Part shown: one piece after another, positions 1 through 49,993 of the stretch
Position numbering within the stretch: the first letter of the stretch is position 1
Layout: the number at the start of each line of letters is the position of its first letter
Source: an uncultured bacterium
GTDB taxonomy: Bacteria; Patescibacteriota; Microgenomatia; Levybacterales; UBA12049
Direction: 5' to 3'
DNA: 64,000 nucleotides
NCBI GenBank assembly: GCA_963826535.1
Contig: CAWGXL010000010.1
Coordinates: forward strand, 170,814 to 234,813
Notes under the pieces: generated by a model
Database searches by the model: none
What the model was told of the DNA's origin: nothing
Seen by the model: the letters and a program-made list of their open reading frames with translations, nothing else
Position numbers and translations under genes: made by a program

Positions 1-1259
1 CAACAATATTTTTAGCGGTCTCTCCCTGGCATATTATGCTTTCACGTGCGGCTTTTGAGGCAAATGTCGCAACCTTCTTTTTAATTGTCGGAGTTACAAG
101 TTTTCTTTATTGGATTAATAAAAAAAATATATTTCTCGTCTTGTCAGTATTATCGTTTGTTCTTTCGCTTTATACATTTAATTCTGCCCGTGTAGTAGCT
201 CCGCTTTTGGTAATTTTGTTGGTAGTGGGATTTTGGAAAATATTATTGCAGAGGAAAAATGCTGTTATTACAGCAGGAATTATTGGATTTTTGCTTGCGG
301 CACCTCTTGTACCCTTTTTATTATCTCCGCAGGCAGGATTGAGATATAAAGAGGTAAATATTTTTTCAGATCCGCAAATTGTAGAAAAGGCTAATCAACA
401 AATCGCCAATGATAATAACGCTTGGTGGTCAAAGATTATCCATAATCGGCGTGTGGGATATGGATTATCTTATATGCAACATTATTTAGATAATTTTTCT
501 CCTGACTTTCTATTTATAAAAGGCAATGGAAATCCCAAATTTTCCACACAAGACGTCGGGCAAATGTATATTTGGTCGCTACCCTTTTTTATATTAGGTG
601 TACTTTTTCTATTTAAAAAAAGAGAAGGACATTGGTGGATAGTTCCTGCCTGGCTATTACTTAGTATAGTACCCGCGGCAGTAGCGCGTGAGACCCCCCA
701 TTCTTTAAGAACGGAGGGTGCACTGCCTACATTTCAAATACTTGAGGCGTATGGTTTTATAGGAGTACTTATTTTTATTAAGGAGCATTTTAGAAAGAAG
801 ATTTTTACTCTCGCATGCGCAATCTTTGGGGTTATATATATATTTAACATTGCTTATTTTATCCATGGTTATTATGCTCATTATGCATGGCAATACTCAG
901 GTGAATGGCAGTATGGCTATAAAGATTCGATCAACTTTATTAGGGATCATGAGCAACAGTTTGATAAGATTTTCGTAACTGATGCCCTAGGGAGGCCATA
1001 TATTTATTATCTCTTTTATCTGAAAACCCCTCCTGAAACTTTTAGAAATAATGCAAAAGTAGAACGGGATTCATTTGGATTTGTAAAAGTAAAAGATTTT
1101 GGGAAGTTTTCTTTTGATAGCAATATTAGTGGACCAAGGCTTGAAGATGAGAAAGTGTTATATATTAGTGATATGAAAAATATTCCCCGAAATGCGAAAG
1201 TTCTAAAAACTTTTTATCTCAAAAATGGAAGCCCGGTATTAATTGCATATGTAATTTGA
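1..1259 (+). CDS. GT-C membrane glycosyltransferase (PMT_2/ArnT-like), 5'-partial at window edge
   Basis: The frame is open from nt 3. The upstream translation TIFLAVSPWHIMLSRAAFEANVA aligns with residues ~125-150 of the next gene (LLLAISPWHLQFSRVGFEANIG). The C-terminal motifs EWQYGYK and FYLFYLKTPPE are shared with 1261..2907. It has multiple TM segments. Confidence 0.6.
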   Translation, partial: TIFLAVSPWHIMLSRAAFEANVATFFLIVGVTSFLYWINKKNIFLVLSVLSFVLSLYTFNSARVVAPLLVILLVVGFWKILLQRKNAVITAGIIGFLLAAPLVPFLLSPQAGLRYKEVNIFSDPQIVEKANQQIANDNNAWWSKIIHNRRVGYGLSYMQHYLDNFSPDFLFIKGNGNPKFSTQDVGQMYIWSLPFFILGVLFLFKKREGHWWIVPAWLLLSIVPAAVARETPHSLRTEGALPTFQILEAYGFIGVLIFIKEHFRKKIFTLACAIFGVIYIFNIAYFIHGYYAHYAWQYSGEWQYGYKDSINFIRDHEQQFDKIFVTDALGRPYIYYLFYLKTPPETFRNNAKVERDSFGFVKVKDFGKFSFDSNISGPRLEDEKVLYISDMKNIPRNAKVLKTFYLKNGSPVLIAYVI

Positions 1260-1260
1260 C

Positions 1261-2907
1261 ATGAAAAAAAAAGTTGGATTATTATTACTTGCCATTTTAG
1301 CGTTAGCGTTTATGTTAAGATTTTGGGATTTGGGTAAGGTTCCTATATCGCCTAATTGGGATGAGGTGGCACTTGGTTATAATGCATATTCGATTATTCA
1401 GACGGGAAGGGATGAATATGGTAAATTTCTGCCGGTTATTTTTAGATCCTTTGATGATTATAAGCCAGGGCTGTATACGTACCTCGCGATACCGTCTGTA
1501 TATACATTTGGGCTCAATACATTTGCTGTACGTTTGCCTTCTGCAATCTTTGGCGTACTCGCTGTGTTAGCGACATTTTATTTAGTACGTGAATTATTCA
1601 AGCGTGATAGTTACGCGTTTATTGCCGCTTTGCTGTTGGCAATTTCTCCCTGGCATCTTCAGTTTTCCCGCGTTGGTTTTGAGGCCAATATAGGTGACGC
1701 ATTAAATATTTTTGCTGCGTTATTTTTTATTAAAGGATTGAAGAAACCATGGTTTTTAACACTGAGCACTGTTTGCGCTGCGCTTTCTTTACATGCTTAT
1801 CAATCTGAAAAAGTTTTCACTCCACTTTTTATGCTTTTGTTAATTGCGATCTACTTTAAGGTTTTGGTTAAAATAGATAAGAAGAAAATTCTTTCTGCAT
1901 TTTTAGTAGGTATAGTTGTCACATTACCGTTGATACACGCAATTGTTTCAGATAAAAATGTTTTGCTCAGAGCAAAAGGTACAAGCATTTTCCAAGATAA
2001 AGACTGGTTGCTTAAAGATCAGGTGAGCATCTTACAATATGAGGTTTCTCAGGGAGATAAGTTAGGAGTATTGTTTGACAATAGAAGAGTTCTCTATGTT
2101 AAAACAGTTATATCGGGATATCTGATTCACTTCAATCCGAATTGGCTATTTATAACCGGCGATATTGCCAGACATCACGCGCCAGGTATGGGATTGTTAT
2201 ATTTATGGGAGTTACCTTTTATATTAATAGGTATCTATTTTCTTATTTTTGGGAAATTTGATAGAAGAACAAAACTGTTTATTTTCGGATGGTTTTTGCT
2301 GGTTCCTATACCTGCATCTATTACAACTGAATTACCTCATTCGGTGCGGACATTAAATTTTCTACCTGTATGGCAAATATTTACTTTGCTTGGTCTTATG
2401 ACCGCATATGGATTTTGGAAGAATATAAAAAAAGGTATATTTAGAATTATACTAGCTGTAGCTTTTCTGGGGGCTGTATTCCTTAACTTTTTTTACTATC
2501 TTAATCAATATTTTGTTCAACAAAACTTTTATTATGCAAGCGAATGGCAATATGGTTATGAATCAGCAATTAAGAGTATGCAGGAAGAAAAAAAGAATTA
2601 CAAAAAAGTGATTGTGTCGGATTTTGCTCCAATGGATAAATCATATATGTTTTTCTTATTTTATCTTAAATACCCGCCTGTGGCTTATCAAGTAGTCGGG
2701 GTGAACAGTTCGGGTCATTTTGCTGCGCATCATAGATTTGATAAGTATGAATTCCGTCCGATAAATTGGGATAAAGAAGAAAAGAGTTCGGACATACTCT
2801 ATATTGGAAGACCAAAAGACTTCCCTGAAAAAGTAAAGGCGCAAAAAATTATTTCATATCCAGATGGTAAACCTGCGATAATACTTGTAGAAGGAGAACA
2901 AATATGA
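1261..2907 (+). CDS. polyprenol-phosphate-sugar dependent GT-C glycosyltransferase (PMT_2/ArnT-like, GT39/GT83-type)
   Basis: 548 aa, about 11 TM. N-terminal periplasmic-loop motif WDEVALGYNAYSI...GRDEYG plus a YKPGLYTY loop. It is a paralog of 1..1259. Confidence 0.7.
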   Translation: MKKKVGLLLLAILALAFMLRFWDLGKVPISPNWDEVALGYNAYSIIQTGRDEYGKFLPVIFRSFDDYKPGLYTYLAIPSVYTFGLNTFAVRLPSAIFGVLAVLATFYLVRELFKRDSYAFIAALLLAISPWHLQFSRVGFEANIGDALNIFAALFFIKGLKKPWFLTLSTVCAALSLHAYQSEKVFTPLFMLLLIAIYFKVLVKIDKKKILSAFLVGIVVTLPLIHAIVSDKNVLLRAKGTSIFQDKDWLLKDQVSILQYEVSQGDKLGVLFDNRRVLYVKTVISGYLIHFNPNWLFITGDIARHHAPGMGLLYLWELPFILIGIYFLIFGKFDRRTKLFIFGWFLLVPIPASITTELPHSVRTLNFLPVWQIFTLLGLMTAYGFWKNIKKGIFRIILAVAFLGAVFLNFFYYLNQYFVQQNFYYASEWQYGYESAIKSMQEEKKNYKKVIVSDFAPMDKSYMFFLFYLKYPPVAYQVVGVNSSGHFAAHHRFDKYEFRPINWDKEEKSSDILYIGRPKDFPEKVKAQKIISYPDGKPAIILVEGEQI

Positions 2908-3779
2908 AAAAACTAACAGTTGCTTTGGCGACGTACAATGAGGAAAGTAACTTATCCGAGTGTCTTGAGTCTATAAAGGACTTGGCCTCAGAAATTGTTA
3001 TTGTTGATGGGTCATCTACAGATAGAACTATAGAGATCGCTAAGAAGTTTGGGGCAAAAGTAGAGGTTACGAATAACCCGCCAATTTTTCATATTAACAA
3101 ACAAAAAGCAATGGATCTAGCGACTAATGATTGGGTCTTGCAACTTGATGCTGATGAGCGTGTAAGCGCAGCGCTTTCTGAAGAGATAAAAAAAGTTATA
3201 AGTATGTCTAATGAAGATTTGAAGGAATATCAAGAAAAGCTTCCAAATAGAAGATTATTTATGAAACACCAAAGGTTACTTATAAAAAGAGATGGGAATA
3301 TCGGCACAGCAGATGGACCATATGTTGCTTTTTTTATTCCCAGACTTAACTATTTTTTGGGAAGATATCTTAAATACGGTGGTATTTATCCGGATGGGGT
3401 TATACGGTTGCTCAAAAAAGGAAAAGCATATTTGCCGTGTATTGATGTCCATGAGCAAATGGTTGTTAAGGGTAGTGTAGGATGGTTACAGAATTCCCTT
3501 TTGCATAAAGATTCACCCACGTTTGAGCGGTACTTGCAGCGCAATAGTCGTTATATTGATCTTATTGCAAAAAAGCTGGAGGAAGAGAGTATCAAAAAAG
3601 ATATAAAAACTTCTGCTGACTATCTTTTATTCAAACCTCTCTCTTGGTTTTTTCTCACACAGGTAAGACATAAGGGTATTCTGGATGGATATCAAGGAGT
3701 AATTTTTTCATTTTTTTCAGCATTGCGATTTCCCAGAGCGTACTTAAGATATATAAAAAAATCAGGATTAAGAAGATAA
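2904..3779 (+). CDS. GT2 family glycosyltransferase
   Basis: ATGA overlap with the upstream gene. N-terminal motifs ALATYNEESNL..IVIVDGSSTDRT and QLDADE (DxD) indicate a GT-A fold. Confidence 0.8.
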   Translation: MKKLTVALATYNEESNLSECLESIKDLASEIVIVDGSSTDRTIEIAKKFGAKVEVTNNPPIFHINKQKAMDLATNDWVLQLDADERVSAALSEEIKKVISMSNEDLKEYQEKLPNRRLFMKHQRLLIKRDGNIGTADGPYVAFFIPRLNYFLGRYLKYGGIYPDGVIRLLKKGKAYLPCIDVHEQMVVKGSVGWLQNSLLHKDSPTFERYLQRNSRYIDLIAKKLEEESIKKDIKTSADYLLFKPLSWFFLTQVRHKGILDGYQGVIFSFFSALRFPRAYLRYIKKSGLRR

Positions 3780-3784
3780 GCACA

Positions 3785-5326
3785 ATGCATCACAGGATCA
3801 AAAGCTTTTTTGAAAAACCAATCGCTATTTTTATAGCAGCAGCGATACTATCCATTGTGCCGACAATAGCTATTTTTTATAAGATTGCAACAGGAGATAT
3901 TTCTTTTTGGTATGACCCTGCAAGGGATTTGCTTTCATCTCTGGAAAATTTACATAAACCTACCTTGATTGGTCCACCTTCCGGCATACCTGGAGTATTC
4001 TATGGTCCATATTGGATTTGGCTTTTGAGTTTTGGACTAATTTTTTCACAAGATCCCCGCCTGGTCACAATCGTAGTACTAACAATTCCTTATTTTATTT
4101 TATTCCCCTTCATTCTTTCGCGTTTTTCAAAAATAATTGGTTGGCACACTATTGCTATTTTGTGGCTCCTTTTTCTATTGACGTCACAAAAGTATTTTAC
4201 CAATCTTTGGAACCCACACCCATCTCTTCTCATCATTCTGCTCAGCATTTATTTGTTTTTTATCAAAACAACCGCGAAGTCTTTCAAAAACTCTCTTATC
4301 ACTTTTTTTGCAGGATTTACAACTGGCCTTGTCATGAACTTCCAACTATCGTTTGGAATAGGAATGCTTTTAGGCATGACCTTCTATCTACTTGGAGAAA
4401 GCATCGTCTATCTTGTTGCGGCAAAAAAGAAATTAGAAGCATTATTGCTAAGAATAAGCATCATGGTTTTATTTGTCCTAGGCTGCATTATATCTTTTAC
4501 TCCCTTTTTGGTTTTTGAATTCCGGCATAATTTTTTACAAACAAAAACACTTATTAATGCATTTACGCATTTTGGCGCAGTGGTAGATCTTACAGGTTTA
4601 ACAAAACCGCAAATACTACAAGTTTTTTTCAATCAAATAAGCAACGTTTTACACCTAACATTTATTCCGGCTATGATATCTTTTATCATTATAACCGTCT
4701 TTTACATTTATTCTTACAGAAAAAGAGGTGACCAGGTAAAAAGTAAAGAAATAAAATTGATAAGTATACTGGTCGCAATTACATCGGGGATTATGTATCT
4801 TTACCTAACTGCAAAAAATCCTATTTGGGATTACCATTTTATTGGTTTTGAACCTCTCATTTTATTATTAATAGGAATTTTTATTGATAGAGCCAAAGCT
4901 CTAAAAATTATTATAACATTATGGATTGTAGTCTTAGTAGCGAACTACACATTTGATTTTATTAAAGGATTTAGGCATGAACCGAAACACATAGAAGGCA
5001 ATCTCGCAGCAGTTGAAGAAGTAGCTAAAAAAATTCAAAAAGAAAGCGATAATAAAGATTACGAAGTTTTTGCATATAGTCAATCCATTTACATATATGA
5101 GTATTCTTATCTATTTAAATGGCTGAATCAGAAGGATGTTCCTTTTGACCCAGGCCAAGTTAGGCCAGGTTCTTCTCTTGTGTACGTAATTATTCCTAAC
5201 TCAGCAAAAAATATGTATAATAGCTATATTGAATATAGAGCCCCGGGTAAGCAATATAAAACAGCAAAAAGTTGGAAAATGAGTGATGGTACAGCGATCG
5301 TCCAGCGTGTAAAAATAATCAAATGA
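3785..5326 (+). CDS. polytopic membrane protein, putative GT-C glycosyltransferase (paralog of 5323..6948)
   Basis: 513 aa with many TM. The N-terminal loop WYDPARDLLSSLENLHKPTLIGPPSGIPGVFYGPYWIWLL aligns with GIGDDSSRDIAIAREALARHELPLIGSFSSAGPFVFGPLFYWVL of the next gene. Confidence 0.5.
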   Translation: MHHRIKSFFEKPIAIFIAAAILSIVPTIAIFYKIATGDISFWYDPARDLLSSLENLHKPTLIGPPSGIPGVFYGPYWIWLLSFGLIFSQDPRLVTIVVLTIPYFILFPFILSRFSKIIGWHTIAILWLLFLLTSQKYFTNLWNPHPSLLIILLSIYLFFIKTTAKSFKNSLITFFAGFTTGLVMNFQLSFGIGMLLGMTFYLLGESIVYLVAAKKKLEALLLRISIMVLFVLGCIISFTPFLVFEFRHNFLQTKTLINAFTHFGAVVDLTGLTKPQILQVFFNQISNVLHLTFIPAMISFIIITVFYIYSYRKRGDQVKSKEIKLISILVAITSGIMYLYLTAKNPIWDYHFIGFEPLILLLIGIFIDRAKALKIIITLWIVVLVANYTFDFIKGFRHEPKHIEGNLAAVEEVAKKIQKESDNKDYEVFAYSQSIYIYEYSYLFKWLNQKDVPFDPGQVRPGSSLVYVIIPNSAKNMYNSYIEYRAPGKQYKTAKSWKMSDGTAIVQRVKIIK

Positions 5327-6948
5327 AACAGAAAAACACTAATCCATTAAAATCCAAAAAAAATAGCAAAATTAATGCGAATCACGAAAGTTTTTTACAA
5401 AAAATTTCGAGGCAAAAATTCCTCATAGGTATTTTGGTAATTCTTTTTATAGCTACTATTCTTCGGTTTTATGATTACCCAACTCGTTGGGGAATAGGAG
5501 ACGACAGTAGCCGGGATATTGCGATAGCAAGAGAAGCTTTAGCTCGTCATGAGCTACCTCTGATTGGTTCATTTAGTTCTGCTGGTCCTTTTGTCTTCGG
5601 TCCACTTTTCTATTGGGTTCTCATGGCGAGTTATATCATACTTCCTTTTTGGTTTACTGCTCCGGTAATAGTAACTGTTTTGACTAGTATCCTAACAGTT
5701 GGCGTGTTGACAGCAGGCGGTTATTTAATTGGCGGTAAAAGATTGGCAATACTTGTGGGTGTACTTGCCACTACCGCTCCTCAGATGGTCGCCCGTTCCG
5801 TCGCTATTGGTCAGCATTCATATGTAGCTATTTCGACTGCGTCACTTTTCCTCTTTTTTATTCTCTATTGGAAAAGACGAAATCCAGTGTATGCCTTTTT
5901 GATGGGATTGGCGTTGGGAGCGGCACTAAGTTTCCATTATCAGACAATTAATCTTTTAATTTTTTTTGCTGCAATTCTCTTTATTCCAAAAGTAAACCTA
6001 GTACATAGAATTGGTGGCTTGCTCAGTATGGGTGTAGGTTTTCTTATCCCTTCACTTCCTCTTATCATTTGGGATAGCCAACAGCAATGGGCAAATTTGC
6101 GAAATATTCTTGATTATTTATTGATAGCACAATATCGTTTGTATGTCCCAAACAGCTGGAGGCTTTTCCTTTTCAATTACTTGCCTTCATATTGGTCATT
6201 TGTTGTCAGCGGTTATGCTGCCAGTGCTTTATTCGTCATGACAGTGACGTTTATTGTGGTTTGTGTATCTGCTATCAGGAGAAAAATTTCAGGTATTATG
6301 GTGGCGTTTAGTATAATCTTTGCTATTTTACTGTTCGTTAACAAATTTTATAAAGGAGAACGTTCAGAAGGCTACCTTATTTATTTATCACCGTTTATTA
6401 TTCTTTTTACAGCATGGAGTATTGAGAAGCTCTTTCAAGTATCAGGAAAAAGAATATATTTAAGATTAGGTCAGCTTATCGGTATAATAGTTCTTCTCAT
6501 TATCCTTACGGGAAATTTTTTGCAAATCAAACATTACGAAAATAGTAAAAACATAAAACATGAACTTGATACAACAATTAGTTTTCTTATAAAAAAATAT
6601 CCAGACACAAAATTTGTAATATATGATTATCGAAATAGGGCAGGAGCGGTGAGTCAGCCATTGGGTCTTTTTTTGAAATTGCAAGACAAAACAGATTCTC
6701 AGGGAATGCCAATCGGTTTTACCTGTTCCGGTGGGGATTGTCCACAGAAGCTCCCTGTAATAGCTACGCTTGCCGGCCGGCCTATTATTGATATGAGTAG
6801 CGTAATAAATAGAGATAATAAGTCGAGTAATTGGGTGAAAGTGAATCAGGAAAATATGTATGATGACCTTATTGGTTGGTCAAAGAGGCATGAGCTGAAA
6901 TCCACCTTTTCGATTCAAAATTACCTCATGGAAAGACTTAGATTATAA
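5323..6948 (+). CDS. GT-C membrane glycosyltransferase (ArnT/PMT_2-like)
   Basis: ATGA overlap with the upstream gene. 541 aa, polytopic. It has the DDxxRD-type first-loop motif typical of ArnT/PMT-like enzymes. Confidence 0.6.
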   Translation: MKQKNTNPLKSKKNSKINANHESFLQKISRQKFLIGILVILFIATILRFYDYPTRWGIGDDSSRDIAIAREALARHELPLIGSFSSAGPFVFGPLFYWVLMASYIILPFWFTAPVIVTVLTSILTVGVLTAGGYLIGGKRLAILVGVLATTAPQMVARSVAIGQHSYVAISTASLFLFFILYWKRRNPVYAFLMGLALGAALSFHYQTINLLIFFAAILFIPKVNLVHRIGGLLSMGVGFLIPSLPLIIWDSQQQWANLRNILDYLLIAQYRLYVPNSWRLFLFNYLPSYWSFVVSGYAASALFVMTVTFIVVCVSAIRRKISGIMVAFSIIFAILLFVNKFYKGERSEGYLIYLSPFIILFTAWSIEKLFQVSGKRIYLRLGQLIGIIVLLIILTGNFLQIKHYENSKNIKHELDTTISFLIKKYPDTKFVIYDYRNRAGAVSQPLGLFLKLQDKTDSQGMPIGFTCSGGDCPQKLPVIATLAGRPIIDMSSVINRDNKSSNWVKVNQENMYDDLIGWSKRHELKSTFSIQNYLMERLRL

Positions 6949-7115
6949 TCCCGAGCTGCATTTGAGGCAAATGTAGCCACATTTTTTCTTGTTTTTGGTA
7001 TATATACTTTTCTCGCCGAAATCCAGGATAAACCCAAATTTCTCTTTCTGTCAGCAATATCTTTCGTGCTTTCTTTATTTCACGAAAAAGCACCGCTTCT
7101 GCTTCCCAGAATTCT
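6949..7115 (+). pseudogene. remnant (internal ~55-codon fragment) of a PMT_2/ArnT-like GT-C gene
   Basis: It starts directly after the stop of 5323..6948. The translation SRAAFEANVATFFLVFGIYTFLAEIQDKPKFLFLSAISFVLSLFHEKAPLLLP matches ORF 1..1259 residues SRAAFEANVATFFLIVGVTSFLYWINKKNIFLVLSVLSFVLSLYTFNSARVVAPLL. The DNA at 6950-6990 is near-identical to 48-90. There is no start codon and both gene ends are missing. Confidence 0.7.
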
Positions 7116-7147
7116 GCGGTGCTATTTTCGACGTTCAACGCTTTACT

Positions 7148-8842
7148 TTACAAAGAAATGTAATTCGCTGAAGCGTAATTGACCAAGCTTACCTTGGATT
7201 TGGCATCACCGGTACGGATCAAGACGTCACCGCCCTTATTTCCATAGTATTTAGAATACCAATATGGATTTTTGGCGAATTTGTGATTGTCTTTTTTAAC
7301 ATACTTATCCAAGTCCTGCTTCTTGAAGTACTTTTCGTAGTCAAGATGCTTAGTATATAGTTTGTAATGTTTTTTCACATCAACATGCTTTTTGTCTGAA
7401 TGCGAGTTATAGCTAACTTGCTTTACATAACTATATTTTTTGTCATCATGCTTTGAGTACTTCTTATCATGATCATCGTCTTTCTTGTAATCAGAATCCT
7501 TGTGTTTTGGATAAAGCACTAAGACGATTGGTGATTTGTGATCACCATAATTTTTGGCAAGCTTTCCCTTATGTTCATAGTCATGCTTAGAATCGACTAA
7601 TTTAGGATACGAGAAGTTAGTATATTTTTTAGCGTACGCGCCATCGTCTTCCCGATATTTTTTATCATAATCGTAATCATCATGCTTGACATATGGGTTG
7701 TAATGATCCTTATGATAGGCATCCTTTTTATCCTTATCATGATCGTATGACTTTTTTTGGTCTACGTAATTGTTATTATCATGATCTTTCTTGGATTGCT
7801 TCTTATCATAATCGTGATCTTTTACGACTTTTTTTTCATGATCATCATAGTTTATGAATTTATATGAATAATCATGATCTTTTTTATTCCCAACAAAGTG
7901 GTACGAGTCCTTGGAATAGGAATTATTGTCGTGCTTGTTATAGTCATGGTCTTTTCCATAATCAGACTTTTCTTCCTCACCCTTTTTATCAGATTCATGA
8001 TACCGATCTTTTTCATAATCATGTTTACCATAATCATGTTTGTATCGATCTGAATCGCCAGCTGTGTAACCTGTATGATTGTTGACATTGACATCGTTGT
8101 TTATATCGGTGTCATTATCTTGGTGCGCTTTCTCCTGAGAATCTTTTGAGAATTTGACTTTATTATCTGAGAATGCACCGTTTCCATGGATTTTAATATC
8201 CAGGTCTTCATCACACTCATTACACCCGGAAATCTGAGCAACGTTCAGGCCTGCCTCATTTTTTATAGAAACGTTTGCTTCAGCATCTCCCGTCTCAATT
8301 CGGACATCACCATCACCGCGTTTCCAGTAACCGGTGTTGCCGCTTGCGCGGTTATTCCCGGTATTATTTTCTACATCGACTTGTGTGTCAATGTTAGTGT
8401 TATTATTCTGGTCAACACGTGTAGTTTTATCGCTTGATAAACGGACATTATTGTCAGAGAATGCACCATTACCATGAATATTAATATCCAGGTCTTCATT
8501 ACATCCATTACAGCCCGAAACACGGGCGACATTTAGACCTGCCTTATTATGGATAGATACATTTGCATCTGCATCGCCGGTTTTGATTGCTACATCTCCT
8601 CCGGTATTTCCGTTAGCTGAGTTATGACCTGTAATATTACTTATTGACACATCATTTCTGATTGTTGTGTCATTTGATTGTCGGATAGCTACGTTTTTAT
8701 TCGTATCAACCCGAACCCTATTATCAGAACCATACCCATTACCCGAAACGCGAATATCTGTATCCGCTGAGGCTGAAGTTACGAAAACTAACCCCAAGAT
8801 TCCTACTGCTGATACCACTTTTGCTATTTTAGTTTTTAACAT
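7148..8842 (-). CDS. secreted repeat protein with Asp/His/Lys/Tyr-rich low-complexity region (unknown function)
   Basis: 564 aa. Signal peptide MLKTKIAKVVSAVGILGLVFVTSASA. Two ~96-aa repeats (GDVxIxTGDAxANVSIxNxAGLNVAxxSGCNxCxEDLDIxIHGNGAFSDN) and a third partial copy at the C-terminus. About 280 aa of KHDY/DHDY/KKD low complexity. Canonical SD GAAAGGAGGTGA 8 nt upstream of the ATG. Confidence 0.75.
   Translation of the reverse strand: MLKTKIAKVVSAVGILGLVFVTSASADTDIRVSGNGYGSDNRVRVDTNKNVAIRQSNDTTIRNDVSISNITGHNSANGNTGGDVAIKTGDADANVSIHNKAGLNVARVSGCNGCNEDLDINIHGNGAFSDNNVRLSSDKTTRVDQNNNTNIDTQVDVENNTGNNRASGNTGYWKRGDGDVRIETGDAEANVSIKNEAGLNVAQISGCNECDEDLDIKIHGNGAFSDNKVKFSKDSQEKAHQDNDTDINNDVNVNNHTGYTAGDSDRYKHDYGKHDYEKDRYHESDKKGEEEKSDYGKDHDYNKHDNNSYSKDSYHFVGNKKDHDYSYKFINYDDHEKKVVKDHDYDKKQSKKDHDNNNYVDQKKSYDHDKDKKDAYHKDHYNPYVKHDDYDYDKKYREDDGAYAKKYTNFSYPKLVDSKHDYEHKGKLAKNYGDHKSPIVLVLYPKHKDSDYKKDDDHDKKYSKHDDKKYSYVKQVSYNSHSDKKHVDVKKHYKLYTKHLDYEKYFKKQDLDKYVKKDNHKFAKNPYWYSKYYGNKGGDVLIRTGDAKSKVSLVNYASANYISL
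8162..8599 (-). repeat. intragenic direct repeat (two ~150-bp copies, period 288 bp) inside the secreted repeat protein gene
   Basis: The copies at 8162-8311 and 8450-8599 are ~75% identical at the DNA level and encode repeat units B2 and B1. Confidence 0.7.
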
Positions 8843-9035
8843 TATTTATTCACCTCCTTTCATTTGAGTGTAATATACTTATATAGCGGTTGTAAGTAAT
8901 AATATAAAACAATATTTGCTAATAATCCCGTAAGAAAAGTAAAAAGGATAATATAGATGAAGTAACATAATTACGCGCGCATATACAAATATATTATCTG
9001 TATCGTAAAATAGATTTTGAGGTTAATATAAGCGA

Positions 9036-9215
9036 AATGAAAATGCAAATAATACATAAATTAATTTTTCCATTCCTAAAGCCATTTTACCGGCTACTAT
9101 TAACCCAAATCAGGCACAAGGGAGCTTTAGAGGGAGCACAAGGCTTCATCTTCTCGTTCTTCTCCGCCCTCCGCTTCCCCATCGCCTACCTTAAATACTT
9201 AAGCAAAAAACGTTG
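9036..9215 (+). pseudogene. 3' remnant of a GT2 glycosyltransferase gene (paralog of 2904..3779)
   Basis: The translation MKMQIIHKLIFPFLKPFYRLLLTQIRHKGALEGAQGFIFSFFSALRFPIAYLKYLSKKR* aligns with the C-terminus of 2904..3779 (LLFKPLSWFFLTQVRHKGILDGYQGVIFSFFSALRFPRAYLRYIKKSGLRR*). Only ~59 codons remain. GC is locally elevated relative to the AT-rich spacer. Confidence 0.75.
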
Positions 9216-9240
9216 ACAAACTGTAAAAAGGTTATATAAT
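9213..9240 (+). promoter_or_regulatory. sigma70-type promoter (TTGACA-N16-TATAAT) driving a leaderless transcript
   Basis: TTGACA at 9213-9218 and TATAAT at 9235-9240. The ATG is at 9253, only ~6 nt after the predicted TSS, with no room for an SD. Confidence 0.5.
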
Positions 9241-9252
9241 GTCCTATATTAT

Positions 9253-9906
9253 ATGCACGAAAGATTTAGACCACTTACAGCTGCAGCTTTAATGGTAGGA
9301 GCTGAAGTTTTTATCGCAACAAGTGCTATTGCTCAGAATGATGAAATTAAACCTGTTGACCCCTCTTTAATGAGGGAAGCCATCGAATGTGTTTTGACAG
9401 TCAAGCCAGGAAAAACAGTTTTATATACAAAGGATTATCCTCAATTTAACTTAAGAAAAACTGAAATTAAGAATAAAGGAAAAAGATATTTTATTGATAC
9501 ATCAAAAAGTTACACAGAAGAGACTGTTCTGTCAGATATCGAAATTGTCGAAATATCTAAAGGAAAAAGCGGAAATGAACAGGTAAGGATTTATTATGAT
9601 GGAACAATAGAACAGCTTGAGGGAGCGGCCAAGAGCGATGACATTTCTCAACGGAAGGAAGCAATATTAAAGCTTACTAAAATTGAAGCTCAAAAAAAAC
9701 TGGATGGACATGTGGATTATGGACGATATCCAGAAGATGAAGCTATCGAGAATAGGGTAAACGATAGGTTTATAAATGGGAGTATAGACCCTCTAGCTGC
9801 TGGTTTATATTTAGAAGCTAGATTTCAGGTAAAACGGGATATATATCAAAAAGGATATAATTCAGCTATTCAGGATATAGTTGAGGCATGCAGAGAAAAT
9901 AAATAA
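9253..9906 (+). CDS. hypothetical secreted protein
   Basis: 217 aa. N-terminal signal-peptide-like segment MHERFRPLTAAALMVGAEVFIATSAIA-Q. No recognisable catalytic motifs. Confidence 0.55.
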   Translation: MHERFRPLTAAALMVGAEVFIATSAIAQNDEIKPVDPSLMREAIECVLTVKPGKTVLYTKDYPQFNLRKTEIKNKGKRYFIDTSKSYTEETVLSDIEIVEISKGKSGNEQVRIYYDGTIEQLEGAAKSDDISQRKEAILKLTKIEAQKKLDGHVDYGRYPEDEAIENRVNDRFINGSIDPLAAGLYLEARFQVKRDIYQKGYNSAIQDIVEACRENK

Positions 9907-9915
9907 GAGATTGCT

Positions 9916-9960
9916 TCGTCGTCCGCCAGCTGGCGGACTCCTCACAATGACTTGTGTTTT
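9916..9960 (+). terminator. GC-rich perfect palindrome (GTCCGCCAGCTGGCGGAC) followed by a T-rich tract; putative terminator/attenuator
   Basis: An 18-nt perfect palindrome at 9921-9938, 15 nt after the stop codon. A T-rich stretch lies ~15-20 nt downstream, which is not ideal for a classic intrinsic terminator. Confidence 0.4.
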
Positions 9961-10004
9961 CTACCTCATTTTTCTGCTAAAATAGAACAAGTTGTTTAAA
10001 TCAT

Positions 10005-10976
10005 ATGAGAATACTCGTCACCGGCGGTGCAGGCTATATCGGCAGTTTCATGGTCAAAAGACTATTAGAAGAGCAACATCAAGTCGTCGTTTTCGACAGC
10101 CTGGAACGTGGACATAAAGAAGCAATAGATCCAAGAGCAAGTCTAAAAATAGGAAATCTACTTAATGAAAACTTTTTAGATGATACATTAAAGAACAACA
10201 ATTTTGACGCAATAATCCATTTTGCCGGCTATATCTCCATGGAAGAATCCATGCGAAAACCTGAAATATATTTCACAAATAATACTTTCGCTACATTAAA
10301 GTTACTCGAAAAAGCAAAAACTTTTTCTATCAATAAATTTATCTTCTCCTCAACAGCCGGAGTTTATGGAAATCCTACAAAAGTACCGATCCCGGAAGAC
10401 CACCTCAAAAATCCCGAAAATCCCTATGGAGAAAGTAAATTAATAGTTGAAAATATACTAAAATGGTTTCAAAAAATTCATGGTGTTAACTTCGTCGCTC
10501 TTCGTTATTTCAACGCTTGCGGAGCCGCGCTAGATGGCAAAATGGGTGAAAACCATAAACCCGAAACCCACATCATCCCTAAAGCAATTGAAGCGGCGCT
10601 TACAAATCAACTATTTACATTATTTGGCAGCGATTACAAAACAAAAGATGGAACCTGCGTAAGAGATTATATCCATGTATTAGATTTAGTAGAAGCTCAT
10701 ATTTTGGCATTACAAAAATTAAACACCGATCCCGGCGGACATTATTACAATGTAGGAACAGGCAATGGCTTTTCAAATAAAGAAGTAGTAGAAATGGTTA
10801 AAAAAATATCAGACATTGATTTTAAAATACAAACACATGAAAGAAGAGCAGGGGACGCAGATGAACTGGTTGCGGACCCGACAAAAATTAACACCGAATT
10901 ACAATTTAACCCAAAATATTCTGACCTTGAAACAATTGTCAAAACCGCGTGGCTTTGGCACAGGAGAAAGATATGA
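10005..10976 (+). CDS. galE: UDP-glucose 4-epimerase
   Basis: MRILVTGGAGYIGSF Rossmann motif, a YGESK catalytic dyad and an RYFNACGA motif. 323 aa. Confidence 0.9.
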   Translation: MRILVTGGAGYIGSFMVKRLLEEQHQVVVFDSLERGHKEAIDPRASLKIGNLLNENFLDDTLKNNNFDAIIHFAGYISMEESMRKPEIYFTNNTFATLKLLEKAKTFSINKFIFSSTAGVYGNPTKVPIPEDHLKNPENPYGESKLIVENILKWFQKIHGVNFVALRYFNACGAALDGKMGENHKPETHIIPKAIEAALTNQLFTLFGSDYKTKDGTCVRDYIHVLDLVEAHILALQKLNTDPGGHYYNVGTGNGFSNKEVVEMVKKISDIDFKIQTHERRAGDADELVADPTKINTELQFNPKYSDLETIVKTAWLWHRRKI

Positions 10977-13263: not shown

Positions 13264-14673
13264 CTAATCCCTAACACCTTTATATTTAATCGCCCAAGCA
13301 ACACCCAAAAGAATCCAAAAAAGACTGGCAACCTTCGATGCTTCTAAAATATCAATAAACAAAGCAGTAATGGCCGCGTCAATTACAATTCCAATAATAA
13401 CTATATAAAATAATTTTGTAAAACGATCATTTGTATGTATTTCGGCAATAAAGCGACGCAATAAAACCCAAAATATTAGCATAATTGAAACAAAACCTAT
13501 CACCCCTGTTTCTCCTAACGCCCGAAGATAATCATTATCTGTAGCCAGGGAAATTGATGAATATCCTGTACCTAGAAACGGATTTTTGTACAATGCATGA
13601 AGAGCCCGCGGCCATTCATCAGTCAAGCGGATCGCGATAGAACGGCCAACTTCAAGTTCCGTATAATCTGTAGACTCGCCTGCCGCGATATCGCGGGGCA
13701 ATCCTTGTTTGGCTTTTGCTTCAGCAATAGCTTCTTCCGATTCCCTGGAAGGAACAATCAATTTATTCAGAATAATTGGTGTAGGGCTCGGTGTATAAGT
13801 CCTCTCAACCTTATTAAGTATATTAACATTCAATGTGGCGACTATCCGCCCGCGAAATTGTGGAACCGCTATAATCAGAAGAATACAGAATAAAATTAAG
13901 CCGATTATCATTGAGCGTTTTTTCAATAACAATAACACCAGGACCAGTCCTGCAAAAGTAGCAAAAAATGATATTCGGGAGGCAGCGTAGGTAAGTAAAA
14001 TAAAACTAGGAACACTTAGGAGAATAATACCCAATCTCATCCAGGCCCTTTTAACATAAAAAAAGACACCTGCCATTACAATAAGAAAATATGAAAGGTA
14101 AATAGATAAATCATAGTGTCCTGCAAATGTGGAATTTACACGACCGTTTGGGGATAATGTCGACAGTATTCCTGTTGAAAAATCCTTGTCAACTGTTGTA
14201 ACAACTTTAAAACCAAAAAATAATTGACCAAATCCATAAATCACAACTACAAGTGTCGCGAAAATAAATGCCCACAATAAATATTTTATATGTTGTCTAG
14301 ATGTAATACTTGTAGCAGCAATCCAGAACAGAAGCATAAATTCCAATCGCCTTAGCCAATGAAGAAAGCCTAAATGCGGCACGACAGACTGAGTAATAAG
14401 AAGCGCGCTAAGAAGAGAAACGAATCCAACAAACCAGAATAGTAAAAAAACTTGAAAGTAAAGATTTCTAAAAATTTCTCGTTTATATACCAAATGATAA
14501 ATAAACCACGAAAATATGGTAATAGCAATAAATAAATCCTCCAAACGTATTGCCACATAAGTCCCGGGAACATTAAAAAAAGGAAATTTAGGATATAAGG
14601 GAATAAAAATCACCAGTCCCATAAGGAGCCAAAATAAAATCTTTGGATAATAAATACCTATAGATTTGATCAT
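13264..14673 (-). CDS. Wzy_C-domain membrane protein (O-antigen ligase / O-oligosaccharyltransferase-like)
   Basis: 469 aa, about 11 TM. Motifs IRLEDLFIA and ATDNDYLRALGETGVIGF are shared with the paralog 51935..54691. Confidence 0.65.
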   Translation of the reverse strand: MIKSIGIYYPKILFWLLMGLVIFIPLYPKFPFFNVPGTYVAIRLEDLFIAITIFSWFIYHLVYKREIFRNLYFQVFLLFWFVGFVSLLSALLITQSVVPHLGFLHWLRRLEFMLLFWIAATSITSRQHIKYLLWAFIFATLVVVIYGFGQLFFGFKVVTTVDKDFSTGILSTLSPNGRVNSTFAGHYDLSIYLSYFLIVMAGVFFYVKRAWMRLGIILLSVPSFILLTYAASRISFFATFAGLVLVLLLLKKRSMIIGLILFCILLIIAVPQFRGRIVATLNVNILNKVERTYTPSPTPIILNKLIVPSRESEEAIAEAKAKQGLPRDIAAGESTDYTELEVGRSIAIRLTDEWPRALHALYKNPFLGTGYSSISLATDNDYLRALGETGVIGFVSIMLIFWVLLRRFIAEIHTNDRFTKLFYIVIIGIVIDAAITALFIDILEASKVASLFWILLGVAWAIKYKGVRD

Positions 14674-15564
14674 AATTCAGTGAGCACCTTTCTATATGTC
14701 TTTGTATAACTAGGTTTACCTAAGACATAAAAACCGACTATACGAAGGAGAATAGATAAATAGATAAAAACTTTAACAGTATACGCCGCAAAAGCCCCCT
14801 TATATTTTTTCTGCAAATAAAGAAGCTCCTTGAATTCTCCTAACCATTGGCGCAAGTTTGGATTATCTGAACTTGCCCCTCCAATATGCATTATTTGCGT
14901 TTTATCTGTCCACCCGACACTATAGCCTGCCTTTTTAGCCCGTATACAATAGTCAACATCCTCACAATACATGAATATATTTTCATCTAATAAACCAATC
15001 GACCAAAGAATTTTCCTTCTTAAACATAATCACACTGCCGCTAACCCAGCCGACTTTTCTTTCGTTCTTGTAATATGCGGCAGAGGTTTGATGAAATGAG
15101 GGAAGAGCATCTCTAAAAAATGGAAGGTCATCTATCCCAAAAAGCCAAACAAGAAGAGGAAGACCAAAAGGCAAATCCCCTGCATTTGGCTGAAGACTCC
15201 CGTCAGGATTTACAAGCTTACATGTTGCAATATCAAACCCAGTTTTCTCCATACTCTCAAGTAGGGTATCTAAACTACCCTCGCTGACTTCTGTATCAGA
15301 ATTTAGAAGTAAGTAGTAACTGGCGTCGGCTTTTTGTAAAGCTAAATTATTTCCACCGGCAAAACCTCTATTCTTGTCACTCTTAATAAGTTTTACATCT
15401 GAAAATTCCTTTCTTATCATTTCTGCTGACCCATCATTTGAGGCATTATCTACAACCCATGTTTCTTGACTGTGTTTCCATTTTTTTGTCTGAATACTTT
15501 TAAGACACTTCCTCAAAAGATCTTTCGTATTGTAATTAAGAATAATGATTGCAAGATTATTCAT
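14670..15564 (-). pseudogene. GT2 glycosyltransferase disrupted by a frameshift (two ORFs, 14983..15564 and 14670..14972)
   Basis: The N-terminal part (IIILNYNTKDLL..VVDNASNDGS) and the C-terminal part (YCEDVDYC..IMHIGGASS) align with the single intact paralog 56145..57074. Homology continues in another frame (GLLDENIFMYCED matches GWMDEDYFFYGED) around ~14995-15010. Confidence 0.6.
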
Positions 15565-22658: not shown

Positions 22659-22664
22659 ACAGTT

Positions 22665-24003
22665 TTAATTTAATAAATTCTTATAAACCGTTACTAACTC
22701 CTTAACATTTTCTTCAATAGATATTTGTTGTGGGAAATATTGTTCCATTTCTTGCATAATTTTTGGATTTTGAATAAAACGCTTGATTTTGCTTGCTAAA
22801 TCAGCACTATTTTCGTTCTCAAAAAGCATCCCTGTTTTATTTTCAATAATAATTTCAGGTAAGCTTCCCAAATTTGTTGCAATGACCGGAGTTTTAGTCA
22901 ATAAAGCATTACGTACTACTAAAGGAGCATTCTTCGAACCATCTTGAAGGTACAATTAGTATATCTATTTCTTTATATACATTAGCTATTTTTTGGGAAT
23001 CAAATGTTCCGCATAACTGAACGTTTTTTAATCCTTTCAAAAGTTTGTAAATCTTTATTGAATATTTGGGATCTGTGTTCAAATCTCCGTATATTTTCAA
23101 CACGATTTTATTGCTATTTAATTCCTTCCATGCTTTTAGCAGTATATCCAGACCTTTTGAATTAATAATACTGCCTATAAATGCAAAACGGATTTTATCT
23201 GCAGCTTTTTTATGAAAATTATTAAAAAGCGATACGTTAACTCCATGAGAAGAAACTATAACCTTTTTTGCGTAAAAACCCCATTTACAAAAATCTCTAT
23301 ATAAAAATAGTGTTGGAAAAATAGCTAAATCCAGTAATGCTAAATTCTTTCGGATAAGATAATTTCTTTTTTTTATCATCGCAACATACTGTGTTTTTTC
23401 TAAATGATATATGGCATTACCAATAAATCTATACAATATTTTCTTAGTAAGATATTTTATATTCATTTTGAATGGATCATCTGTATTAAATCTATTATGG
23501 TTAAAAAATCCTATTGTAAAGAGATTTGCAAGATCCTCTGCCAGATTTTCATCTGCAGGATTAATTAATAATGCATTTTTACTTGTAATCCTATTAAATA
23601 ACATAGTTTGGAGCCAGAAATCATTAACGGTCATAATCTGGGGGATGCCTGAAACATATCCAGCTTGAATTAGATTAATTGATAAATGCATTAAGTGTTG
23701 ATAATGGATAATATCAGGCTTAAATTCTTGTAATAATACCTTGAAACCAGGTATAACTTTATCATCGTTGTATGTTTTCTCGAAATTTTTTATTTTTTTA
23801 ATATTTTTTCTTAAGCGGTAAACGGTTATTCCGTAATATTCATCGGCCTTAATCTCATAATCACCATTTTTATCTAAGGGTTCAGTAGTAAAAATAACTA
23901 CTTCATGATTTTTGCTAAGCGTTTTGGCTAATTCATATGTATATACTTCAGTTCCGCCTACATAATTTGGCAGGAAAGTGTGGGTTACTAATAAAATTTT
24001 CAT
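22665..24003 (-). pseudogene. GT4 glycosyltransferase split by a frameshift (ORFs 22909..24003 and 22665..22955)
   Basis: The N-terminal ORF carries the GT4 N-domain (MKILLVTHTFLPNYVGGTEVY) and ends at VPSRWFEE. The downstream ORF, in another frame, carries the C-terminal motif (TKTPVIATNLGSLPEIIIENKTGMLF). Confidence 0.55.
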
Positions 24004-48470: not shown

Positions 48471-49418
48471 ATGATAAGCATAGTAGTACCCGTACTAAAC
48501 GAAGAAGAAAGCCTGGAGCCATTTTATCAAGAGCTCCACAAAATTATACTCGAACTCAAAGTTGATTACGAAATCATCTTTATTGACGACGGATCAACTG
48601 ACAATTCATTGGAAATACTAAAAAAGTTATTCAAAGTCAATGACAAAATAAGGATATTTTCCTTCAGGAGAAATTTAGGAAAATCCGAAGCTCTCAGCTT
48701 AGGTTTTATAAAAGCCAAAGGAGATTTTATTATCACCCTCGATGCAGATCTACAAGATAAACCCTCGGAAATACCCAAGCTTCTGCGCATTGCTAAAGAT
48801 GGAATTGATGTGGTATCCGGATGGAGAAAAAACAGAAAAGACAAATCCCGCATGTTGATTATTTCCCGTTTATTTAATTTTTTAATGGGAATGCTATTCA
48901 ATCTTCATCTACATGATTATAATTGCGGAATAAAGTTATATACCAGAGATGCTGCCAAAAGCCTGCGTCTGTACGGAGGGCTTCACCGTTTTATTCCTCT
49001 TCTGGCTTACGAACAAGGATTTACCGTAGATGAAGTGATAGTTGAACATGCGTCAAGAAAGTATGGCAAATCAAAGTATAATTTTTCCAAACTCTGGAAA
49101 GACGTACCCGATATGTTTACAATGCTGTTTCTTGTAAAATATGGCAAACGCCCTTTACATTTTTTTGGTATTGTTGGAGGAGTATTAACACTAATCGGAT
49201 TTATTGTACTAGGTTACTTAGCTGTCCTTCGCTTTTCAGGAGAAACGATTGGTAATCGGCCTCTACTATTTTTTGGTATGTTACTTCTACTTGCCGGATT
49301 CCAAATATTTTTTACAGGATTCCTTGCAGATCTGATGATTAACATTTCTCATAATCCAAAATTTCTCAATGAAGAGAACCCTCATTATCCTATTAAATAC
49401 GCCAGCGAAAAATTATGA
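48471..49418 (+). CDS. polyprenol-phosphate sugar synthase with C-terminal TM helices (ArnC/GtrB-like GT2)
   Basis: ISIVVPVLNEEESL..FIDDGSTDNS..TLDADLQD, plus two C-terminal TM helices as in GtrB/ArnC. Confidence 0.8.
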   Translation: MISIVVPVLNEEESLEPFYQELHKIILELKVDYEIIFIDDGSTDNSLEILKKLFKVNDKIRIFSFRRNLGKSEALSLGFIKAKGDFIITLDADLQDKPSEIPKLLRIAKDGIDVVSGWRKNRKDKSRMLIISRLFNFLMGMLFNLHLHDYNCGIKLYTRDAAKSLRLYGGLHRFIPLLAYEQGFTVDEVIVEHASRKYGKSKYNFSKLWKDVPDMFTMLFLVKYGKRPLHFFGIVGGVLTLIGFIVLGYLAVLRFSGETIGNRPLLFFGMLLLLAGFQIFFTGFLADLMINISHNPKFLNEENPHYPIKYASEKL

Positions 49419-49993
49419 TTATCGGAATTGATATTTCCCAAATGGCTTATGAGAATACTGGAGTGGCAAACTATTTAGAAAGTCTAATAAAAAGTTTATT
49501 TGCAAAAGATGATAAAAATGAATATATATTATTTTTCTCATCTTTAAGACGAACTATTCATTTTTCATCTGATTTAATAGGGACTCAATCAAATCACAAA
49601 GTTTCGATTAAGCAATTTAAAATCCCTCCATTTTTTTTAGATATCCTTTGGAACAAACTTCACATTTTCCCTATAGAATGGTTCATTGGTAATGTAGACA
49701 TATTTATTTCCTCAGACTGGACAGAGCCGCCTACAAGGAAAGCAAAAAAAGTTACAATATTATATGATTTTATTATATTTAAACACCCGGAAGAAACGCA
49801 TAATATAACAGAGTTTAAAGTAAAAAAGTTAATTCTTTCACCAAATATTGTGGCTATTCAGAAAAGAAAATTACTTTGGATGAAAAAGGAATGCAAACTT
49901 ATCATTTGTATTTCAGAGTCTACAAAGCGGGATGCAATAGAGATGCTAGGTATTGAAGAAAAACGGTTGAAAGTAATTTATCCCGGAGTTTAA
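49415..49993 (+). CDS. truncated GT4 paralog (N-terminal Rossmann domain only)
   Basis: MIIGIDISQMAYENTGVANY... ends at KVIYPGV*. This corresponds to the first ~165 aa of the next gene (MIIGIDGNEANVTNKVGISEF ... VVYPGIKP). Confidence 0.55.
   Translation: MIIGIDISQMAYENTGVANYLESLIKSLFAKDDKNEYILFFSSLRRTIHFSSDLIGTQSNHKVSIKQFKIPPFFLDILWNKLHIFPIEWFIGNVDIFISSDWTEPPTRKAKKVTILYDFIIFKHPEETHNITEFKVKKLILSPNIVAIQKRKLLWMKKECKLIICISESTKRDAIEMLGIEEKRLKVIYPGV

Follow-up and report, generated by a model that had tools for sequence, protein, structure and literature searches.

What left pieces of two glycosyltransferase genes between a glycosyltransferase-like gene and galE in an uncultured member of the Levybacterales (Patescibacteriota)? 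The stretch analysed, hereafter the window, is 64,000 nt of contig CAWGXL010000010.1, has a G+C content of 34% and belongs to a low-GC Patescibacteria genome. The first piece, which we call the GT-C relic, lies at 6949-7105 (+), directly behind a gene for a 541-residue GT-C-like protein with a weak PMT_2 match (5323-6948, +); the second, the GT2 relic, lies at 9037-9216 (+), upstream of galE (10005-10976, +; Pfam Epimerase, 1e-56). The answer that we favour, with a probability of about 0.6, is that both are left over, and decaying, from a second GT-C#1…GT2 module, divergent and probably foreign, that was overwritten by two lineage-specific genes for secreted proteins.

The local counterparts of the relics are found at the start of the window. 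There, a GT-C/PMT_2 gene entering from upstream (GT-C#1; partial, ending at 1259, +) is followed by a second gene of that kind, GT-C#2 (1261-2907; PMT/PMT_2 in Pfam), by a GT2 gene (2904-3779; Glycos_transf_2 in Pfam), by a gene for a 513-residue membrane protein (3785-5326) and by the 541-residue gene. The nearest neighbour of the genome is a Candidatus Levybacteria metagenome-assembled genome, L001 (complete chromosome OY970292.1), with 83% DNA identity to the first 6.9 kb of the window; other loci used for comparison are numbered in the same way.

Two truncated glycosyltransferase genes

The GT-C relic is an internal piece, covering about residues 138-190 of roughly 550, of a GT-C/PMT_2 gene belonging to the GT-C#1 orthogroup. 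It lies in frame directly past the TAA of 5323-6948, so that the frame of the 541-residue gene reads on from the stop codon as SRAAFEANVATFF…SLF, and 6949-7080 translates as SRAAFEANVATFFLVFGIYTFLAEIQDKPKFLFLSAISFVLSLF. Such an in-frame fragment had been claimed in a first, sequence-only reading of the locus, and it is real, extending over 6949-7080 with traces to about 7105. In blastp and tblastn comparisons it matches residues 14-57 of the partial GT-C#1 product of the window at 66% over 44 residues (E 5e-13), a segment that corresponds to about residues 160-200 in the full-length L001 ortholog. Identity to the L029 GT-C#1 ortholog reaches 73%, with E values of 5e-13 to 2e-16 across the GT-C#1 orthologs, as against 35% identity to GT-C#2. 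Beyond a gap of 5 codons a weak match (APLLL) continues to about 7105; the 5-codon deletion takes out a TFNSARV-type motif that is conserved in the aligned intact GT-C genes. No start codon in the frame of the relic would yield a product of at least 40 residues, and Pfam PMT_2 was undetected in the fragment. Clear as its homology is, the piece falls short of a full-length GT-C/PMT_2 gene, with its roughly 500-560 residues, N-terminal catalytic loop and start codon.

The GT2 relic comprises the last 59 codons and the stop of a GT2 gene, and forms an intact, ATG-started open reading frame (ORF) without the whole catalytic domain. From its first residues to its natural stop it aligns with the C-terminus of GT2 orthologs, at 67% protein identity with the local GT2 (2904-3779), with which its paralogy had been correctly recognised, and at 74% with the GT2 of L002 (E 2e-18). 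The signatures LLLTQIRHKG, QGFIFSFFS and AYLKY are shared with L002 and L007 and not with the local GT2. Four of the 26 residues that are invariant among eight orthologs are altered (Y>F, W>R, D>E, R>I), a figure that may be compared to the 0-2 altered in intact orthologs left out in turn. The GT-A catalytic domain (Glycos_transf_2, about residues 5-170) is missing: at the GT2 relic there was neither a Pfam or NCBIfam match nor any further tblastn homology, and several stops lie in its frame 5' of 9037. The AT-rich (~26% GC), divergent intergenic region before it (8843-9036) likewise gave no tblastn match to a glycosyltransferase. In a public protein collection 9037-9216 is not called as a gene, and its exact sequence is missing there.

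A tblastn search of 6801-10100 with 12 full-length proteins (GT-C-type, GT2 and 513-residue proteins of the cluster, from the window and its relatives) found no relic besides these two. Neither can be a working glycosyltransferase, and 6949-7105 and 9037-9216 are for annotation purposes pseudogene fragments, not genes.

At the nucleotide level both relics stand far from the local genes. The GT-C relic is 64% identical to local GT-C#1, with identities of 68, 82 and 41% at codon positions 1, 2 and 3 and a longest exact run of 14 nt; the GT2 relic is 60% identical to local GT2, with 70, 86 and 23% at the three positions and a longest exact run of 5 nt. DNA that had been described as near-identical to positions 48-90 proves to match there at 32 of 43 positions (74%). 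Similarity of composition only, which had been named as the outcome that would overturn the homology, does not describe these data either: nucleotide identity is low, but similarity at the protein level is far above chance. The combination of saturated third positions with conserved second positions indicates long divergence as working genes, and neither a fresh copy nor long neutral decay, whereas the lack of stops and frameshifts in the relics indicates that truncation was young relative to that divergence. The divergence itself is old, or arose in another genome.

Base composition was compared through the G+C content at third codon positions (GC3). Over its last 43 codons the GT2 relic has a GC3 of 0.63. 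For comparison, 17,210 stretches of 43 codons from 53 genes of the window gave a mean of 0.29, a standard deviation of 0.077 and a maximum of 0.56. In the same region of the gene the local GT2 has a value of 0.23 and the L002-type GT2 genes values of 0.40-0.56 (L002 0.56, L006 0.49, L007 0.42). The composition of the GT2 relic is thus foreign to its present surroundings. The GT-C relic, with a GC3 of 0.27, is local-like.

Gene order in relatives and the left edge of the insert

Thirteen loci with orthologs of the 541-residue gene were compared, each from a single assembly. The common order among relatives is GT-C#1, GT-C#2, GT2, the 513-residue gene, the 541-residue gene, a short spacer and galE. 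Six of the loci (L002, L005, L006, L007, L026 and L029; 53-69% identity) have the 541-residue ortholog followed by a spacer of ~45-70 nt and then galE, which is usually preceded by a TGnTAnAAT promoter element. The equivalent element of the window, TGCTAAAAT, is at 9975-9983 and is of the same type as that 5' of galE in L002, L005 and L006. Since the 541-residue ortholog abuts galE in six relatives, galE is the ancestral right-hand neighbour of 5323-6948, and the stretch from 6949 to about 9960 is a lineage-specific insert of 3 kb.

The three closest relatives, L001, L003 and L004 (80-83%), differ from the window by much more. Synteny with them ends at the 541-residue gene, whose ortholog lies directly before the homolog of window gene 49415: the entire stretch 6949-49414, some 42 kb of glycan genes, is missing at the syntenic site. 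The 42 kb after the 541-residue gene hold almost nothing other than genes for GT4 and GT2 enzymes, Wzy-like proteins, ABC-2 transporters, methyltransferases, epimerases and heptose-type sugar-nucleotide functions; the surface-glycan gene cluster to which the window belongs is large and changes fast.

One relative has the complete module at the site of the relics. An intact arrangement had been predicted to survive among related genomes, and it was found in L028 (51% identity), where the 541-residue ortholog is followed by intact GT-C#1 and GT-C#2, a 565-residue gene, a 115-residue gene, an intact GT2 and then galE. L028 therefore shows that a GT-C…GT2 module can sit at exactly this site, in the same order as the relics. 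Two further loci are truncated: in L027 a GT-C#2-like gene follows 3' of the 541-residue ortholog before the contig ends, and in L008 the contig ends shortly past that ortholog. As an aside, the 115-residue gene of L028 (13688-14035), which stands between the third large membrane-protein gene and GT2, belongs to the '23S rRNA intervening sequence protein' family, a four-helix bundle.

A change of ancestry was located inside the 541-residue gene, within its last ~19 codons (6890-6948, +). It was assessed at 171 informative nucleotide sites, these being sites at which L001, L003 and L004 agree, L002 and L007 agree, and the two groups differ. Up to 6889 the window sides with L001/L003/L004 at 153 of 164 sites; in 6901-6935 it sides with L002/L007 at 6 of 7 (Fisher 2.6e-6; none of 300 permutations as extreme), the breakpoint lying between 6889 and 6901. 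Across the final 51 nt the identity of the window to L001 falls from 85% to 54% and that to L002/L007 rises from 66% to 72%, while most other comparisons drop. The true discontinuity begins about 50 nt before the stop of 5323-6948, not at 6949. It falls directly past a nearly invariant NQENMYDDLIGWSK block, which is plausibly the crossover site. A truncated homolog thus stands at a junction where both synteny and ancestry change, as is expected of remnant genes in a recombining polysaccharide cluster. As to polarity, we infer rather than observe which of the two, the window or the L001 clade, is recombinant.

To the right of the insert the picture is less sharp. As the right flank is less like L001 in its DNA than the left (65% as against 83%), a second switch of ancestry was considered; it was rejected, because L001 and L003 are themselves only 71-83% identical there, so that gene-specific rates account for the difference. 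The window galE (10005-10976) is 80% identical to that of L007 (3709-4689), other relatives reaching 60-70%; for the 541-residue gene, L007 is no closer to the window than other relatives are. Taken by itself, this similarity of galE hints at further mosaic ancestry right of the insert.

Nothing recognisable as a mobile element accompanies the insert. The window has no tRNA gene, ORFs of at least 100 residues scanned from 1 to ~54.7 kb have no integrase or transposase Pfam domain, and a viral scan found no match. Among flanking repeats there is only a 9-nt match, ATAATCCCG (6945 and 8922), together with weak inverted repeats, all at chance level. The hallmarks of mobile elements and of integrase-type islands, namely a transposase or integrase gene, terminal inverted repeats, a duplicated target site or a flanking tRNA, are thus not seen at the insert, and for want of a tRNA, an integrase or transposase or a convincing flanking repeat we attribute it to recombination, not to a classical mobile element.

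Origin of the relics

The history that best fits these observations would begin with a second, divergent GT-C#1…GT2 module between the 541-residue gene and galE, as is still found intact in L028. Its source would most likely have been a different lineage of Patescibacteria, and it would have entered by recombination in the conserved flanks, with one crossover in the conserved 3' end of the 541-residue gene, at about 6890-6900. Most of the module would then have been deleted or overwritten by genes with their own expression signals: a repeat-protein gene (7148-8842) with a Shine-Dalgarno site and a terminator, and an orphan secreted-protein gene (9253-9906) with a consensus promoter. Left over would be a start-less, internal GT-C piece of 44-52 codons and the last 59 codons of GT2. 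The DNA of the relics would now be only spacer, the GT-C piece lying in the 3' untranslated region between convergent genes, where it perhaps forms a terminator hairpin, and the end of the GT2 relic overlapping the -35 of what would be the promoter of the orphan gene.

Several points weigh against this history. If the second module was once intact, at least three deletions or replacements are needed to arrive at what is seen today, no genome near enough to show an intermediate was found, and L001, L003 and L004 are uninformative on the insert. L028, a distant relative at 51% identity, was not the donor, as its genes match the relics at only 45-60%. The two relics may have different histories, the GT-C relic being local-like in GC3 (0.27) and unlike the GT2 relic (0.63). 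The ancestry switch rests on seven informative sites in 51 nt, and could reflect a change in the L001 clade instead. Finally, 9037-9216 may be expressed, being an unbroken ORF of 59 codons with a possible GAGG lying 12 nt upstream.

Of the competing explanations, the one that survives best is nevertheless unlikely: that the fragments are unrelated debris of separate illegitimate recombinations, or the ends of imported DNA, and that there was never a complete second module here. The sharp contrast in composition just mentioned would suit such an origin, as would the different closest relatives of the two pieces (L029 and L002) and the heavy turnover of the cluster, including its 42-kb difference from the closest relatives. 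It would, however, leave to coincidence that a GT-C#1 piece comes first and a GT2 3' end last, on the same strand, the one immediately behind the 541-residue gene and the other a short way before galE, which is exactly the order of L028.

An origin within this genome was the proposal of the sequence-only reading, according to which the neighbouring GT-C + GT2 cassette was duplicated and the copy recently destroyed on arrival of the repeat-protein gene; we now consider this improbable. It was correctly noted that the order and strand of the fragments mirror the intact genes at 1-3779, and both relics do fall into the same orthogroups as the local genes. The GT-C relic is also local-like in its GC3 of 0.27, and tandem duplication with differential loss would also account for the module of L028 being on the other side of the 541-residue gene. 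A recent segmental duplication should, however, show high nucleotide identity, synonymous sites included, and neither relic does: they match the local genes at no more than 60-64%, with saturation at synonymous sites. The best match of each relic lies in another lineage (L029 at 73% for the GT-C relic, L002 at 74% for the GT2 relic, as against 66-67% for the local genes), so that pairwise identities point outside the local clade. A sequence with the GC3 of the GT2 relic cannot have resided long among genes with values of 0.18-0.38, and no relative with the upstream module also has a second one. The GT-C relic is, moreover, of the GT-C#1 type and not of the type of the gene adjoining GT2. What stands of the proposal is that the fragments are true gene relics at a site that a GT-C…GT2 module can occupy, with intruding genes between and behind them; a recent copying of the local cassette is not supported. 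The description of the event as recent is likewise half right, since it applies to the truncation, young in relation to the divergence, and not to the divergence itself.

A more elaborate possibility, and a doubtful one, is that the window represents the decayed intermediate of a change in gene order. A GT-C#1–GT-C#2–GT2 module would once have stood on both sides of the 513- and 541-residue genes, through duplication or through homologous import via the flanks in the 541-residue gene and galE, and reciprocal loss would have given the upstream order of most relatives and the downstream order of L028. The leftovers might in addition have acquired new uses: the GT-C piece that of a terminator, the GT2 end that of a -35 element in a new promoter or of a 59-residue micro-protein.

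That the fragments are kept for a function that they now have, the 59-codon ORF as a small protein mimicking the C-terminal helices of GT2 and the GT-C piece as the terminator of 5323-6948, is very unlikely. In favour of a function in general, a perfect promoter has its -35 across the stop codon of the GT2 relic. In favour of a small protein, the intact ORF has an ATG, the GAGG mentioned above and a weak promoter-like site at 8982-9011; on the other hand, four residues invariant in eight orthologs are altered in it, it is missing from the protein collection, and none of the loci fetched for comparison contained a conserved copy. In favour of a terminator, a pattern scan detected a hairpin at 6955-6999 (+) with a perfect stem of 10 bp, a 3-nt loop and a T-rich tail. 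It is built from the relic codons for AAFEANVA, two changes relative to the paralog improve its pairing, and a terminator of 5323-6948 would suit this site between convergent genes. The fold is suggestive but not significantly better than those of shuffled sequences (-12.7 kcal/mol, z -1.67, 11 of 200 shuffles equally good), the same codons of intact paralogs forming weaker hairpins, and terminator-like sites are only 2-fold more frequent than in shuffled sequences. A terminator role is thus a minor possibility. An 8-nt match, CCCGAGCT, between the first codons of the GT-C relic and the spacer of L006 was noticed post hoc and judged uninformative.

An artefact of assembly, in the form of a chimeric join between strains in this metagenome-assembled genome, is scarcely credible: the source is a single 494-kb contig, seen once, two other glycosyltransferase genes of the window look frameshifted at A-runs as though by possible assembly errors, and ancestry switches inside a conserved block, but the relics share with the rest of the window no long exact repeats by which an assembler might be misled (longest run 14 nt), and the two genes that bound the insert, the 541-residue gene and galE, adjoin in six other genomes.

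If the relics are indeed what remains of an overwritten module, they are a new instance of a well-known and ordinary phenomenon. Remnants of O-antigen genes occur at the junctions of blocks, an example being the wzy remnants between wbaV and wbaU in Salmonella groups B1 and D1 (Reeves et al. 2013, PMC3715488). As in O-antigen and capsule loci, truncated and non-functional pieces of cluster genes lie here at junctions of blocks with differing relationships, in a polysaccharide locus with a history of recombination and replacement, where differing parts of an original gene survive serial deletions. The host, in contrast, is one of the Patescibacteria, the genes are of the GT-C/PMT_2 and polyprenyl-phosphate-type GT2 kinds, no insertion-sequence or H-repeat element was found at the junction, and there are no close strains from which the steps could be reconstructed.

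The wider cluster invites a second comparison. Free-living bacterioplankton have hypervariable glycosyltransferase islands that are thought to aid evasion of phage recognition (Okazaki et al. 2022, PMC9426551). The present cluster resembles them in that close relatives differ over a long series of genes for glycosyltransferases, polymerases and sugar-nucleotide functions, 42 kb being missing in the three nearest, and in showing foreign composition, through the GC3 of the GT2 relic; it differs in that single assemblies and not population data were compared. The relics are a concrete scar, and one that can be dated, of gene turnover at such a locus in a bacterium of the Candidate Phyla Radiation. 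Glycan loci of this kind are likely to be important for host attachment and phage evasion in these organisms, and have rarely been examined at this resolution. These clusters appear to exchange modules among fairly distant lineages, and close relatives can differ by a glycan block of 42 kb.

A third likeness concerns the genes themselves. With their PMT/PMT_2 and Glycos_transf_2 domains, the intact neighbours resemble pairs of a GT2 synthase and a GT-C transferase of the ArnC/ArnT-like and Ppm1/PMT-like types. Many homologs of the 541-residue protein are fused GT2+PMT_2 proteins, which indicates that the pairing of GT2 with GT-C is a functional unit in the family. The relics, lacking the catalytic GT-A domain and most of the GT-C membrane domain, share this likeness by descent and not by function.

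Newer genes in the insert and other features of the window

The repeat-protein gene occupies the reverse strand between the relics (7148-8842, -) and the orphan gene follows the GT2 relic (9253-9906, +), both as the sequence-only reading had placed them; we regard the two as intruders. The first encodes 564 residues, its translation showing a signal peptide and three repeats of ~96 residues, the last of which is interrupted by a stretch of ~300 residues rich in His, Asp, Lys and Tyr. Within the gene, 8141-8311 and 8429-8599 form an internal DNA repeat (75%). A strong Shine-Dalgarno site, AAAGGAGGTG, precedes it at 8851-8860 (-). A likely intrinsic terminator, consisting of a hairpin and a T-run (inverted repeat I18), lies at 7085-7127 (-): its stem, read 7127-7085, begins ~20 nt past the stop of 7148-8842 and is followed by UUUUU, as is characteristic of such terminators, and the RNA of 7150-7060 (-) folds at -26.8 kcal/mol (z -4.17, none of 200 shuffles as stable).

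The repeat protein is a member of a large unnamed family: 1369 clusters are homologous to it at E<=1e-3, and identity reaches 59-61% in the closest of them. Searches of Pfam, of NCBIfam and, by profile, of the PDB gave no match, and the single-sequence AlphaFold model of the repeat domain was unusable, with a predicted local distance difference test score (pLDDT) of 36. Across the family, N-terminal repeats of ~96 residues are followed by a His/Asp/Lys/Tyr-rich insert of variable length and a closing 'GGDVxIxTGDA…' strand, and L013 has three paralogs in tandem (3303-8582). Homologs elsewhere stand in unrelated contexts (17 metagenome loci found, six of them with enough flank for inspection). 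The idea that the relics travelled with the repeat-protein gene gained no support, GT-C or GT2 genes flanking the homolog at none of the six.

The orphan gene encodes a protein of 217 residues with a signal-peptide-like N-terminus. A search of 5.8 billion clusters returned only the protein itself; the curated cut-offs of Pfam and NCBIfam were reached by no family, the one sub-threshold Pfam match being to DUF6881 (E 0.042). In front of it, at 9213-9240 (+), is a perfect sigma-70-type promoter, TTGACA-16-TATAAT, which scored 12/12 in a promoter scan and is the only perfect site in 6800-10100. The -35 of this promoter is the element noted above, which runs across the stop codon of the GT2 relic; the -10 ends 12 nt 5' of the ATG at 9253, a spacing from which we infer that the transcript would be leaderless or nearly so.

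A GC-rich perfect palindrome of 18 nt, GTCCGCCAGCTGGCGGAC (9921-9938), stands behind the orphan gene and ahead of the galE promoter, close to the right-hand end of the insert. At up to 3 mismatches it has one match in the window, a match also being found in 1 of 100 shuffled sequences, and it was not found in the 25 loci fetched. It may be a hairpin or a terminator.

Three further glycosyltransferase genes of the window are broken or partial. The GT4 gene at 22660-24003 (-) has an apparent frameshift near an A-run, its last ~75 residues (…APLVVRNALLTKTPVIATNLG…) being in another frame inside an apparent intergenic gap (22659-22908); it is either a pseudogene or the product of a homopolymer assembly error. 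A GT2 gene at 14670-15564 (-) is split into ORFs of 100 and 193 residues that jointly match one L001 protein of 292 residues, the shift again being at an A-run. The third, a half-GT4 ORF of ~180-190 residues, covers only the N-terminal half of the GT4 fold and stands as a separate gene before a full GT4 gene. The window (49415-49993), L001 (11690-12235) and L003 (2960-3499) all have it, L004 having a partial copy, and its conservation in the window and two relatives indicates that some 'half glycosyltransferases' here are not relics.

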